In this document: positions 1,640 through 43,115 of the stretch, piece by piece
How the letters are laid out: every line of letters begins with the position of its first letter
Numbering within the stretch: the stretch's first letter is position 1
Assembly: GCA_964016885.1 (NCBI GenBank)
Contig: OZ024744.1
Span: forward strand, 93,620,001 to 93,684,000
Source: Eledone cirrhosa
Taxonomy: Eukaryota
Direction: 5' to 3'
DNA length: 64,000 nucleotides
Translations under genes and position numbers: made by a program
The notes under the pieces: generated by a model
Databases searched by the model: none
The model's input: only the letters and a program-made list of their open reading frames with translations
Told to the model about the DNA's origin: nothing

Positions 1640-1793
1640 AAGTACTCAATACATGTGCAGAGTGACGACAGAGGTTTATATAGAAAAGGCTTTTACAGGA
1701 TTAGAACTGTTTCATTCGTATGAAATCAACCTGGTGATTCCATACAAATGAAACAGTTCTAGTCCTGTAAAAACCTTTTCTATATAAACCTCT
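1640..1793. mobile_element. Fold-back element with degenerate hammerhead core (Penelope-like derived)
   Basis: Inverted arms 1670-1793; CTGGTGA..GAAACAGTTCTAGTC core; minus-strand CTCTGCACATGTATTGAGTACT motif; next to (TA)n; related copy at 31909-32030. Confidence 0.6.
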
Positions 1794-2129
1794 CTCTCAT
1801 ATATATATATATATATATATATATATATATATATATATAAATATTAACAATAAGTACGTGAATCATTCCGTCATTAAGCTAACAGAAGTCTGATGAACTT
1901 TTGATTCCAGGGTTGAGCCTGATTGATAGAGATCAAATCTTGAGCTGATCAATCGCGAAATGCGCATTACACCTAAATATATTTTAAGTATGGTCATTTG
2001 ATACCCGCTAAAGTTAATTAGACTTATTCCAAGGTGGAGATGATCCTCTTCTGAAAATCGAGCATAACTTGGTATCGATGCCTCCCTGATGAGCATCAAT
2101 ATGAGGAGTTAAACTTGAGTGGGTGGTGG

Positions 2130-2530
2130 GTCCACTCCTTCTTGAGCCTTGACTTAAAAATGTTGACTGAGGGTGTGTCAACTGTTTCTTTTTTGAGGTT
2201 GTTCCAGAGGTTGATCACATGTGCAGAAAAGAAGTGGTTTTTAGGACTTGGTTAGTATTGTACCTGGAACTTCTGGTTGTGTCCTCGGGTAGTCCTGCTG
2301 AGTGCTTGTCTAAACAGTGCATTGCCGCAGGTGGGACAACTCCTACTCTACTGTATTTTATTGAACTCATTTAGTATTTTAATAGCTTGTATGATGTCTG
2401 CCCCCTGCCTCCTATACTCCAGTGTCGGGAGTCCCAAAGACTGAAGACATTCATTGTAGAGTAGTGAAAGGAGCCCCTGGATGAGGCATGTTGTCCTTGT
2501 CTCTCTTTAACTTGGATGCCCATATAACAG
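2130..2530 (-). mobile_element. CR1-clade LINE ORF2 3' fragment
   Basis: Minus-strand translation gives LQSLGLPTLEYRR..ADII and FFS..VINLWNNL, typical of the CR1 C-terminus. Confidence 0.7.
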
Positions 2531-2572
2531 AGGCATACCTAGTCTAATCCATACTTATTATTAACATTACAC

Positions 2573-2760
2573 GGTGATTTGCAGTATCGGTAGAAGGTTG
2601 GACGCCATGCTTTGATGCACAGAGTTACGGCCCTTGCCATTCTGAGTTTAAATCCTGCCGAGGTTAACTTTGCCTTTCATCCTTACGGAGTCGATAAAAT
2701 AAAGTACCAGTAATCTACTGAGTAATTGCTGGCCTTGTGCCAAAAGTAGAAACAATTATT
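2573..2760 (+). mobile_element. tRNA-derived SINE family B, full length, with TSD
   Basis: Box A-like GCAGTATCGGTAGA, box B-like GAGTTTAAATCC, tail GTAGAAACAATTATT; flanked by ATTATTAACATTACAC direct repeats. Confidence 0.85.
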
Positions 2761-3027
2761 AACATTACACTCTGCTTAGTATAACCCCAGAGTACACTCT
2801 GCTGGAGACTATGCATTGAGCACTCAACAATAACTTGTTGTTACAATCCCTAAACTACTAAAAATGTTTTATTGTAAAAAATTCAAGTGTCTTTTGTGGT
2901 TATGAAAAGGAGAAGGGAAGGGAAAGGCAAGGGCTCCAAAGTCACAGAAGAATGGGAAGAGAAAGGGTGATGGGCTTTAGTCCTAAACTATATATATAAA
3001 TATATAAATCAACATATAGAAAGAAGT

Positions 3028-3374
3028 CATCATCATCATCATCATCATCATTTTACGTCTGCTTTTCCCTGCTTGCAAGGGTGGGACGGGAACTGATTCT
3101 GGCTTGATTTCTACAGCTGGATGCCCTTCCTAACACCAACCTCATTTACAGTGAGTGCTGGGTGCTTTTTTGTTGTGGCACCTACACGACCACTTTGCAG
3201 TGGAATGGTAGGGACCCCAGTCCCTATCATCTCATTTCTACAGCTGAGTAAACTGGAGCAATGTGAAATAAAGTGTCTTGCTCAAGGAAACAACACATCA
3301 CCCAGTCTGAGAATTGAACTCACAACCTTTCGATTGCAAGGCCAATGCTCTAACCACTAAGCGATGTGCCTCCA
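3028..3374 (-). mobile_element. tRNA-derived SINE family A with RTE-derived tail
   Basis: Reverse complement of 54072-54410: tRNA-like head, TCCTTGAGCAAGACACTT core, RTE-like tail and (TGA)n. Confidence 0.85.
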
Positions 3375-3375
3375 T

Positions 3376-39639: not shown

Positions 39640-40320
39640 TGACAAAAAGTGTCCAGTTCGCCTTGGAAGTTGGTAGCACTGGTGCCATGACAAAAAACAT
39701 CCAGCCTGCCCTGAAAGATGGTTGTACTGGTGTCACAACAAAAATCAGCCCATCCACTCTGTAAGTTGGTAGTGCTGGTGCCATGACAAAAAACACCCAG
39801 TCCACCCTGTAATGGGGTAGTGCTGGTCCCATGACAAAAAACACTCAGTCTACCCTGTAAGGTGGTAGTGCTGGTGCCATGACAAAAAACACCCAGTCCA
39901 CCCTGTAATGGGGTAGTGCTGGTCCCATGACAAAAAACACCCAGTCTAACCTGTAAGGTAGTAGTGTTGGTGCCATGACAAAAAACACCCAGTCCACCCT
40001 GTAATGGGGTAGTGCTGGTCCCATGACAAAAAACACTCAGTCCACCCTGTAAGGTGGTAGTGCTGGTGCCATGACAAAAAACACCCAGTCCACCCTGTAA
40101 TGGGGTAGTGCTGGTCCCTTGACAAAAAACACCCAGTCTAACCTGTAAGGTAGTAGTGCTGGTGCCATGACAAAAAACACTCAGTCCACCCTGTAAGGTG
40201 GTAGTGCTGGTGCCATGACAAAAAAAAAACACCCAGTCCATCCTGTAATGTGGTAGTGCTGGTCCCATGACAAAAAGAAAACACCCAGTCCATCCTGTAA
40301 TGTGGTAGTGCCGGAGTCAC
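39640..40320. repeat. 48-bp minisatellite expanded inside a SINE
   Basis: Unit GTAGTGCTGGTGCCATGACAAAAAACACCCAGTCCACCCTGTAA(T/G)GG; followed by a SINE-type tail ending (TGA)n at ~40490. Confidence 0.9.
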
Positions 40321-40924
40321 AGTAAAATGCTCCCAGTACACACCTTAAATTAGGAAAAGCATCCAACCATAGAAACCAAGCCCCAAAGGGAACATATGAG
40401 TAGGATCTAGTCATCTGACCCGTCTAGCCTCAAAACGTGACAAACCACATAACCCATGTAATCATGGAAAATCTGTGTTAAATGATGATGATATGTATTA
40501 TAAGGACCACCTGTTGAAGTTGGTAATTGAACGCTTGAAATATATGAAGGTAGGGAAAGCAGCTGGCTTATCAAGGATATTCACTTAGTTGCTTGAAATA
40601 TCTGGCTGAGTAGTCATATTGGGAATTAGGTAGTACAGAAGGTGTTATATCTATTAAGTAGAAAAGAAGAAAGGGCCCAATTACAATCAAGGAAATGGTT
40701 ATGTTTAATAATCAGAAAGGAGTATACAGAAATGTTATGAGGTAAACCCTGTGTAAATTATAGATGCACAAGATGTGTAGTGGAATCATTGGCAAGTTGA
40801 CAAAAGATAGACTTTGTATATGACAGATACATAGGAGTTGTTAACAGTAAGTGTTCATTGGAAATAGATTTTCTAATTCTTGTTAGTTTCCCTAGAAATT
40901 ATTGATAGCTTCTGTTATCTGGTT

Positions 40925-41223
40925 GAGCCCATGCAGTGGAAACTTTTAGTTTCCTTGGCCCTAGGGCCACCTCGCTACTCATCACCATCAGCACAGAGCT
41001 GGTTACCTGCAGGTGTGAGCCTTGTGAACTAGAATGGCTCTTCCAGCACGTCTCCCTCACCATCCTCCGGGGAAAGAACTTCTCTATTATGTCTACCAGA
41101 GCCATGGACCGGTCAACATGTGAGCCCCCATTTGCTCACAATAGTAAGAGATGGGGAGAATGGGAAAGATAGAGGCAGTGACAGTGGGAGTTTGGTTCTT
41201 TTAGTGTTCGGACCTGGTGTATA
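40925..41223 (+). mobile_element. CRE-derived 3' fragment
   Basis: AVETFSFLGPRAT...CEPCELEWLFQHVSLTILRG, homologous to 28880-29040; same 3' flank as 56858-57205(-). Confidence 0.75.
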
Positions 41224-42169
41224 GTGACCTATCTAGCAGTGAAAATGAGTGTTCCAAAGAATATCAGCCAGTGTAAGAATGAAGTAGAAACAAATGTTTT
41301 TTTTTCAAAATTTGTATTTATTAATCATTGTAATTAATTAAATAGCAGCTAAGTAACTGATAATTTGACCTGAAAATTCAAGTTGTTTTGTCTTAGGCCT
41401 CAGAGGTGGCTTGGAATTTCAAAATCTTAAGGGGTGCCATGATAGAAAAAGGTTAAGAACCACTGTTCTGGTACAACACTAATAGTGTTAAAAGTCAAGC
41501 CCTCGGGTATAGTACAACATACATACAATAAACATGAAATGATTAACACAAGTAACACGGTTCAGATATTTTTGTATAACCAGCTACTAACTTACCATGT
41601 GTCAACAAGGGAACCTCTAGATGATTGCTTGACCTGGTAGAAATAGCAGCCAAACATCACTGAAATCACAGTCCAAATCCCCAAATTCAAAATCTAGGGC
41701 CTTCTCACCCCTGTTGGCGGAACCCCCCCCCCCCCTCCCTGGTTAACCTCCACTGCTTCCTATTTCTGGCCATATTGGACCATGTGGGGCTGAGGTATCG
41801 GGTCAGATCATCAAGTCATCTGGCCTTTGGTCACCCTCTGGTTCTTCTCCACTGCTTTGGTGTCCACCCTATCACTCTAACAGTCAACCATCTTAAAAAT
41901 ATAAGAATGCACATTTTGTAATGTAGTCTTAGATGACCCGTCCCTTAAAAAATGGGATGTTCACAACTAAAATGCTTTTGATCTTAGGTCTACTCAATCA
42001 TAGATGGAAGGAAAAGACCCTTAACTCTTGATAGTCTTAGGGGCGCCATCCTAATACAGAGTGTGTCTCTGTGTATTGTAAACCTAGCTGAGACTATATC
42101 TCTATCTTGGAATTAAAACAACCGTTTCCTTCCAGAAAATGAGAGTTGTAAAGAGTTGAACTGAAAGAA

Positions 42170-42520
42170 TCAACCCCTGTACTGGACTGGTCCTTTATTT
42201 ATCCACATAGAAAGGATGAACTGCAAAGTTGACACCTAAGGCAGGATTTGAACTGAGAGCACTGTGAGTCAGATCAAATACAGAGGCAGTTAATCTGACG
42301 CACTAAAACAGAAGCAACTTGAGCTCTGCTAATGAAGGCACCTCTAAGCAGTTGGCTGACCTGCTAAAAATAGCAGCCAATAATAACAGGATTTGAACTC
42401 GGAGAACTGTCAGAACAAATATCGAAGCAGCTAATCTGATGTCCTAAAACAATAGCAACTTGTCTCTATTAATGAAGGTACCTCTACGCAGTTGCCTGAC
42501 CTGCTAAAAATAGCAGCCAC
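42170..42520. repeat. Degenerate SINE fragments with local ~145-bp tandem duplication
   Basis: CAGGATTTGAACT...CTGACCTGCTAAAAATAGCAGCCA occurs twice. Confidence 0.6.
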
Positions 42521-43009
42521 CTCACCTTAAATAATATTCTAATTTCTTTAAAAAAAAAAAAGGAAGTAGTCATGAATACATTTCCCCCCCCCCCCCCCAC
42601 ACACACACACTACCAATAAATGGGATGGTCATGGCTGGTATACCTTTGATTATAGGATTGCTGGGTCAGAGCAACTTGCATAAAAGTTACTCAGATTAAC
42701 AGTAGATTAATATTTTATGTGGCTTAATAAGTATTATGTAATACAGTTTGTGGCAGTATTTTTCATTATCTTGTAACAGCTATCTATAATACATACGCAA
42801 TGTAATATAGATAAATCGATTTGCTGTACCCATGCCTAAAATTAAAAAAACAACAAAAAAAAACTAATCATATACTCTAAAGAACACGTGTACATATGTA
42901 TCTGTGTGTGTGTCTGTGCAGGTATATATATGTTTGGGCTTGTATGTTATTGTTGATAGGATTGCGTAAGGTAAAATTGTGTGTGTGTGTAATTAATTAG
43001 ACCATTATT

Positions 43010-43115
43010 CAACAGAGTACTCAATACTTGGGGTAGTTAGAGTATGGCTTTATTATAAAGAGTCGGGACCTGACGGCTGAGCTCTTGCTGTTTCAACAGC
43101 TAGTCCCAGACTGAT
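43010..43115 (-). mobile_element. Family P1 fragment
   Basis: AGAGTACTCAATACTTGGGGTAG and GACGGCTGAGCTC motifs. Confidence 0.6.

Follow-up and report, generated by a model that had tools for sequence, protein, structure and literature searches.

Palindromic insertions of probable Hydra-clade Penelope-like elements in Eledone cirrhosa and a covarying bulged hairpin beside both of their ends

The elements and their relation to published Penelope-like systems

Penelope-like elements (PLEs) of the Hydra clade are described as PLEs with a C-terminal endonuclease (EN+) that carry hammerhead ribozymes and target (TA)n (PMC8557442; here and for the other sources cited, statements refer to the accessible part of the text). 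In a Poseidon PLE of Anolis, PAc, the reverse transcriptase (RT) was reported to start in vitro at two internal sites bounding the tail, AT-rich DNA was cut on both strands, and a dimer was modelled, while hammerhead cleavage was not required for insertion (PMC11167929). Both of these sources treat it as an open question how the inverted copies and the one-sided tail arise. We examined a window of 64,000 nucleotides of the Eledone cirrhosa contig OZ024744.1 (positions 93,620,001 to 93,684,000), set in a 3.0-Gb, TA-rich genome, in which a first-pass annotation had seen palindromic fold-backs with hammerhead halves and a common tail motif. Our analysis suggested that these palindromes are probably 5'-truncated head-to-head insertion products of Hydra-clade PLEs, and that the motif common to the tails is a bulged hairpin with covarying pairs, present twice per full-length element and likely to be an RT anchor just 3' of each of two internal start sites.

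All eight fold-backs listed in the first-pass annotation were present in the window. Seven of them are long near-perfect hairpins, and the exception, at 3376-3915, consists of inverted arms of about 120 nt flanking a spacer. Fold-back joints with variable centres were also found in contigs of public sequencing runs (four runs from at most two samples of one study, possibly the assembled one), which disfavours a pure assembly artefact. These contigs did not span the insertion site, and no empty allele was seen; none of the sequencing runs listed as carrying the sequence was an RNA run. The fold-backs had been regarded as unrelated in sequence; several families were indeed recognized, but the insertions at 24656, 36621, 38303 and 43015 all belong to one family (A) and those at 1670 and 31975 to another (B), the remainder representing families C (37754), D (31208), E (32466) and F (3376). 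Two more insertions, a stub of a family G (36469) and a fold-back at 24993-25125, were added to the list. At least nine families occur side by side in this genome. Searches with families A to F yielded 773-2887 first-look candidates each, 40 of which were scored per search.

To follow the short insertions into longer copies, we walked upstream of their loci. Among 30 family A loci, 27 were short fold-backs whose junction varied from copy to copy, two were long copies whose inverted arm lay at a distance, and the last had no inverted arm adjacent to it. The walk led through a 1.3-kb 3' untranslated region (UTR) into a coding region and then into whole units consisting of a pseudo-long terminal repeat (pLTR), an open reading frame (ORF), the 3' UTR and a second pLTR, with a full-length size of about 3.6 kb in A and about 4.8 kb in B. 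Counted from ATG, the open frames of A and B are 713-717 aa long (717 aa in A). Family B matches a young family that holds many identical 758-codon open frames, family C copies have a like ORF upstream (one copy being full length), and a sister family of E is linked to an ORF. A GIY-YIG fragment was found upstream in one of six long copies of family D, and no ORF was met in the upstream walks of long copies of F (0/7) or of E proper (0/7). Thus the term "non-autonomous" in the first-pass annotation does not hold for A, B and C, which are the 3' ends of ORF-bearing elements, while for F and E proper no ORF link was found. The palindrome centres vary from copy to copy, suggesting that each palindrome was most likely formed anew at insertion.

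Three ORFs of 717, 713 and 709 aa were compared, each a single frame in which an RT (GLYRDD present) is followed by a C-terminal GIY-YIG domain (I/V-Y...YIG present). All three contain RWR, DKT, a CxCx5C linker, CxxC and CxH, and RWK or RWR was present in 19/19 aligned metagenome relatives; judged by eye, CCHH is absent from the endonuclease, with at most one Cys between GIY and YIG. By these protein motifs, the same as those given for the single RT-GIY-YIG ORF of the Hydra clade (PMC8557442), the elements are assigned to that clade, and a likeness to Hydra-1_Amil and Hydra-1_Obim was seen by eye only. Assignment to the Neptune PLEs was rejected, since a Neptune PLE needs DKG, a CX2-5CxxC linker and CCHH, and we found DKT and CxCx5C. 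A search with the Hydra-element protein gave 2024 homologues at E ≤ 1e-20 among 8000 scored, at about 40% identity, and its predicted fold (predicted local distance difference test score (pLDDT) 87.7) had telomerase RT (TERT) as the best match in the PDB. A PDB search by sequence with the PLE proteins gave no match, and Pfam gave none for the PLE proteins of the window families, with GIY-YIG being matched in the top homologue, P0001.

The canonical features of a PLE insertion unit, namely the pLTR, an adjacent inverted 5'-truncated copy and a tail at one end, were all present. Together with the ORF, the hammerheads and the TA flanks, they bear out the earlier proposal of hammerhead-bearing Penelope-type elements that target (TA)n. 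They also agree with the Hydra clade as published in having a type I hammerhead near the 3' end, a (TA)n target, an inverted 5'-truncated copy and a one-sided tail (PMC8557442). The fold-backs as such are therefore ordinary: an inverted copy, a tail at one end only and insertion into (TA)n have all been published for PLEs, and the earlier suggestion of an undescribed system fails for the insertion anatomy. Two differences from the published clade were noted: the units exceed the length of "generally" <3 kb, owing to long 3' UTRs, and the tails measure 60-140 nt against 30-40 nt. In families B and D, the 3' UTRs hold long TA/TG microsatellites, the element's own target (L327:3200-4200; L371:5100-5500), which may favour nested insertion.

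Hammerhead descriptors matched families C, F and G, with complete predicted type I ribozymes. The hammerhead halves reported previously do occur, but complete hammerheads are also present in the window, at 36484 (+) and 37841 (-); family F carries a complete type I hammerhead in other copies, its window copy being decayed. Further hammerheads, read by eye, are predicted in A, B, D and the sister family of E. Two quoted details required correction: the cleavage triplet of family B, read from the full-length copy L327, is a GUA further on rather than GUC, and GAAACGATCGTA does not occur literally in the window but is the family form. An Rfam search of the window gave no hammerhead among the 150 best of 379 matches, and the matches shown were sub-threshold microRNA (miRNA)-like hairpins only. 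The predicted ribozymes resemble the minimal type I hammerheads of metazoan PLEs (PMC4209133) in their type I cores, in the palindromic stem III (C, D, E and G), in a U3-A8 core variant (a subfamily of A and the sister family of E) and in the opposite-strand pairs arising from truncated PLEs; in contrast to our case, the accessible text of that study describes no elements 3' of the ribozyme. The 5' pLTR hammerhead of family A has U3-A8 in one subfamily (L177, L179, L183), against an unpaired C3/A8 in the other (L007, L173, L174).

A covarying bulged hairpin in the tail

The common tail motif had been given as CTCTAC-N(2-8)-TAT(T/C)GAGTACT. In this literal form it matches the window zero times, and with N up to 10 it matches twice, the other five named sites being variants; a looser, structured form was nevertheless found at all of the named sites. 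This form is a bulged hairpin, RCUC-stem-loop-stem-UN-GAGY, in which the bases between the constant RCUC and UN-GAGY swap in pairs: UAC/GUA in A, CAG/CUG in C, UGC/GCA in D and GGAAU/AUUCC in F. Within the window it also occurs at 3953, 24993 (-) and 31161 (-), and in a long-loop form at 32650-32735. A scan of 789 kb of fetched DNA gave 199 matches, as compared with 7, 3 and 12 in three shuffles, an enrichment rather than a genome rate because the loci were picked for these families; a microsatellite follows 164 of the 199. In some families (L311-L317, L321 and window 32650-32735), the base of the hairpin is kept while the loop has grown to 30-70 nt, and the loop thus looks dispensable.

Two such hairpins, termed hairpin 1 and hairpin 2, lie between the hammerhead and the ATG in the full-length elements of A, C, the sister family of E and two further families of the same genome, with hairpin 2 mostly 35-90 nt before the ATG. 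From 77 loci of metagenome relatives, the 38 with a match starting at residue 1-6 were used for a hairpin count. Two hairpins were present in 16, one in 13 and none in nine, so that at least one occurred in 29; several of the nine hairpin-free relatives are short or rearranged upstream. Shuffled controls showed two hairpins in 1/760.

Covariation was examined with a descriptor that fixes only CUC and UNGAG and imposes no pairing at the tested positions. Because a MAFFT alignment of 41 hairpins left the variable loop ungapped, a script was used in place of a covariance model to count the pairs of 62 distinct instances against shuffled partners. The outer pair was Watson-Crick in 47/62 (G-C, A-U, U-A), above the shuffled partners, and the first upper pair in 50/60 (35 C-G and 15 U-A; shuffled mean 30), followed by the second with 33/55 (shuffled mean 16.8) and the third with 25/41 (10.1). 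Departures in the upper stem comprised 13 sense-strand G-U against two A-C, suggesting that the RNA strand is favoured. On a quick tree of 30 proteins, picked for a visible hairpin 1 and labelled by eye, the switch between C-G and U-A in hairpin 1 required eight changes, at least five of them forced by well-supported branches.

Two published consensus sequences, Hydra-1_Ajap (at the start) and Hydra-2_Amil (at the end), carry the same hairpins by eye, unannotated. Neither "hairpin" nor "stem-loop" is mentioned in the accessible main text and supplement text of PMC8557442, and no description of the motif was found in the literature searched, with subscription papers, Repbase notes, and the figures and GenBank supplement of PMC11167929 lying outside its scope. 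Both the doubling of the hairpin and its link with the two insertion ends therefore appear to be undescribed.

Insertion ends, start sites and alternative explanations

The enrichment of (TA)n at the insertion sites, as proposed earlier, was confirmed: (TA)3 lies within about 20 nt of 261/332 ends of 166 head-to-head pairs, the background being 14% for randomly drawn positions of these loci and 9% over window positions 1-44000. A target-site duplication cannot be read within (TA)n. The ends themselves fall beside the hairpins. With 11 read-throughs excluded, family A has 157 distinct termini, of which 55 share a position 5 nt upstream of hairpin 1 and 66 a position 3 nt upstream of hairpin 2, so that two positions account for 121. 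Family C gave a similar picture, with 72 of 82 ends accounted for by 30 at hairpin 1 (0 nt) and 42 at 4-7 nt before hairpin 2, and the short end of family E lies 3 nt before its long-loop hairpin 1. Among the 12 metagenome 3' ends that remained once contig ends and tandem read-through had been removed, eight are found 0-4 nt upstream of a hairpin. Among 89 head-to-head pairs from loci fetched without a tail query (one unclassified pair dropped), 80 combine a short with a long end, five are long+long and four short+short (p ~1e-15 against 50%), under a heuristic pairing rule that may join neighbouring insertions. The tail can sit on either arm (L034, L106 and window 31123). The position of the hairpins beside both ends makes it quite probable that they set the start sites, and the tail motif is thus a likely cis signal for the RT/endonuclease, as had been suspected.

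Several observations weigh against this interpretation. The fourth upper pair of the hairpin is at chance level (11/28, P 0.08), energy folding fails to pick the hairpins in family A, and for four tail regions the z-scores range only from -0.6 to -2.4. Hairpin 2 of family B is reduced to a 4-bp stem that lacks the UN bulge, although long ends are still formed 5-12 nt upstream of it, and the start of the published cephalopod consensus Hydra-1_Obim has no clear motif by eye. The four remaining metagenome ends lie at 11, 12 and 86 nt and, in one case, 3 nt before a variant hairpin that the descriptor missed, and in family F, 5 of 18 pairs are of the same kind.

The strongest rival, which we consider unlikely, accepts the same elements and holds that their ends are set solely by TA/TAT microhomology with the target, the hairpins having another role, for instance in the packaging of the RNA by the ORF protein or in controlling translation from the nearby ATG. 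This view is favoured by the TA-rich overlap of 2-6 nt with the target at every mapped end, by the closeness of hairpin 2 to the ATG and by the long ends that family B forms despite its reduced second hairpin. However, the AT-rich UTRs hold many unused TA sites, yet family A concentrates its ends at the two positions given above, and the offset from the hairpin stays at 0-7 nt though the tails span about 40-140 nt across families.

How two hairpins could yield one palindrome is suggested by the comparison with PAc (PMC11167929), which, on our interpretation, has in common with the present elements two internal RT start sites bounding the tail, an AT-rich target cut on both strands and a predicted dimer. 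PAc belongs to another clade, and its start sites lie within the ORF in one "AC-rich stem loop", reportedly non-homologous to the target, whereas in the present elements the putative start sites are in the 5' UTR, where each precedes a conserved bulged hairpin of its own and has TA microhomology to the target. We lean slightly towards a scheme in which a single RNA is used by two RT/endonuclease molecules, each at one of the hairpins. They would nick (TA)n on opposite strands, anneal at the TA/TAT microhomology that precedes each hairpin and synthesize two cDNAs, which would then be joined head to head. Each hairpin would hold one RT, so that synthesis would start just 5' of the stem, primed on the short TA overlap with the nicked target; one two-hairpin RNA would thereby give one short and one long cDNA on opposite strands, and the tail would be the stretch lying between the two start sites. 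Full-length copies would require tandem or circular RNA, because the genomic 3' end never includes hairpin 2.

Somewhat less probable than the microhomology explanation is that the hairpin acts as DNA, in a cDNA or as a pLTR cruciform, recognized by the GIY-YIG endonuclease at resolution of an intermediate. The tail is needed for recognition by the Drosophila Penelope endonuclease, as cited in PMC11167929, and Craig et al. (PMC8557442) attribute it to endonuclease-mediated resolution. On the other hand, the excess of G-U over A-C in the upper stem points to the RNA strand, and hairpin 2, sitting 3' of the long end, is missing from terminal cDNA ends.

The 5' boundaries of the short pairs bear on the origin of the many very short palindromes, for which run-off copying from the promoter-proximal hairpin pair, ending at the 5' end of the transcript, is in our judgement evenly balanced against other explanations. 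Measured upstream from hairpin 1, the commonest boundaries (bystander copies included) are at 53-74 nt in A and 60-73 nt in B, and in D they reach about 180 nt. In B and D, a canonical TATA box precedes the boundary by about 30 nt (background 4-5%), and in A an initiator (Inr)-like TCATTT lies at the boundary; TATA/Inr have been proposed in a rotifer pLTR (PMC3846280). The run-off step is weakened by the TATA box being only loose in A and F and absent from the expected place in C, by the TATA-less promoter of Drosophila Penelope (PMC2377424) and by the AG at the boundary, which could instead mark a splice acceptor, so that splicing would be the alternative source of these ends. The predicted transcript start of family A lies inside stem II, and the 5' ribozyme would thus be without its CUGA half. 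Hammerhead cleavage was also considered as the source of the fold-back centre and rejected, since in family A most junctions are located at a clear distance upstream of the cut site.

An improbable account is that of the first-pass annotation, in which short non-autonomous ribozyme elements re-transpose as palindromic units by means of a PLE enzyme supplied in trans. Its merits are the hundreds to thousands of candidates per family, sizes that are alike within a family, the missing ORF link in F and E proper, and a preprint that proposes non-autonomous PLE derivatives (bioRxiv 10.64898/2026.07.22.740005). Against it, junctions vary among copies, the copies grade continuously into ORF-bearing elements, and most short family A inserts lack the CUGA half of the hammerhead; under the two-start-site model, moreover, a short insertion without hairpin 2 could not template another short+long product. 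The non-LTR retrozymes of that preprint are likewise PLE-derived, hammerhead-bearing, non-coding short repeats, but they form head-to-tail tandem units with a whole hammerhead, unlike the dispersed head-to-head stubs with variable junctions described here. A retrozyme of this kind, with fixed tandem non-coding units, was rejected for A, B and C on account of the variable junctions and the ORF continuity. Fold-back DNA transposons of the miniature inverted-repeat transposable element (MITE) type, with terminal inverted repeats inserting at TA, would match the palindromic shape and TA flanks and are extremely improbable in view of the variable centre, the one-sided tail on either arm, the hammerheads and the RT ORF continuity, and for A, B and C they are refuted by the ORF link. 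The ends, moreover, are asymmetric rather than fixed termini.

Returning to start sites set by the hairpins, we tentatively extend them, at somewhat below an even chance, to a clade-wide rule, in which the bulged-hairpin pair is a landing pad for two PLE RTs and one RNA, read from two programmed internal sites, primes both strands of a cut (TA)n at once. If true, this would account for the PLE tail, for the inversion into head-to-head copies and for the stubs that resemble MITEs, and a 20-nt hairpin placed 3' of any cargo would program the start of a telomerase-like RT. A conserved, covarying signal a few bases from each end allows a direct mutational test and offers a minimal RNA for structural work, and young intact copies exist in the genome (family B). 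The motif also provides a 20-nt diagnostic for Hydra PLE ends, missed here by Pfam and Rfam, and MITE-like or miRNA-like hairpins of TA-rich genomes should be viewed with caution, as they may be PLE stubs.

Insertions and other features of the window

The first family B insertion (1638-1793, -) comprises the fold-back at 1670-1793, with its junction just 5' of the hammerhead GAAA, a tail on the left with hairpin 1 at 1644-1663 (-; ACUC-UGC...GUA-UU-GAGU), and (TA)n at 1800-1841; full-length members of the family are L323 and L327-L329. A second family B stub with tail lies at 31909-32025 (+), with hairpin 1 at 31974-31992. Elsewhere in the genome, at G000:C3:34.88-34.92 Mb (L057-L059, L062), near-identical repeats about 10-12 kb apart each carry the same family B stub, representing a recent segmental tandem duplication. 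An extra hammerhead-like fragment at 1890-1970 (+; CUGAUGA...GAAA-UGCGCA-UU), recognized by sequence, was traced to no family. In the family F insertion (3373-4023, +), a short interspersed nuclear element (SINE)-like repeat interrupts the inverted left arm, and the right copy has the decayed hammerhead and the tail, followed by TA, with hairpin 1 at 3953-3974 (+; ACUC-GGAAU...AUUCC-UU-GAGC).

Family A is represented at 24656-24861 (+), where the fold-back (24656-24780) and the tail, which reaches 24861, have (TA)n on both sides and hairpin 1 at 24787-24810, and by a young insertion at 36620-36816 (+), a 56-bp perfect fold-back with tail, (TA)n on either side and hairpin 1 at 36742-36765. Two A-related insertions follow: an asymmetric fold-back with TA on both sides at 38303-38464 (+; hairpin 1 at 38401-38424) and an older stub without an inverted arm at 43000-43102 (-; hairpin 1 at 43019-43043). 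The additional short fold-back at 24993-25125 (-) has hairpin 1 at 24993-25019 and a partial tail.

In the family D insertion (31123-31500, no strand assigned), the fold-back has its tail on the left arm, with hairpin 1 at 31161-31180 on the minus strand, and the right side is the short end with (TA)n. The family E insertion (32462-32781, +) comprises the fold-back at 32466-32634, a tail of about 140 nt and then (TA)n, and the first pair of its long-loop hairpin 1 (about 32650-32735) is mutated. The family G stub, a short end within TA at 36469-36578 (+), contains a complete minimal type I hammerhead with its core at 36484. The family C insertion (37753-38147, +), of which ORF-linked copies are known, is a 300-nt fold-back with one hammerhead core per arm (37963, +; 37841, -) and a tail with hairpin 1 at 38065-38089.

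Other features of the window include a frameshifted LTR-retrotransposon pol at 12916-15728 (+), with RVT_1 and rve matches, which we take to be Gypsy-like by its domain order, and Rep/helicase fragments at 16808-19459 (+), presumably Helitron-like, with a Pif1 2B domain at 18998-19459 (Pfam). A frame at 20930-21406 (-) resembles by eye the RT thumb of another retroelement; it gave no Pfam match, and its similarity to the Hydra protein was not significant. Two broken non-LTR retrotransposon copies (26113-29084, + and 30106-31158, -) have RT (RVT_1) matches and, in translation, a C-terminal KRPD restriction-like motif. A TA/TATG satellite of about 10 kb with a strong G skew occupies 44200-54100, with an N gap near 49.1 kb, and beside this large TA satellite an intronless 218-codon frame at 55426-56082 (+) matches thymidylate kinase (Pfam PF02223, E 9e-42), being a single-exon gene or a retrocopy. 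Finally, a tandem array at 39700-40330 is built of units of about 40 nt from a SINE-like repeat.

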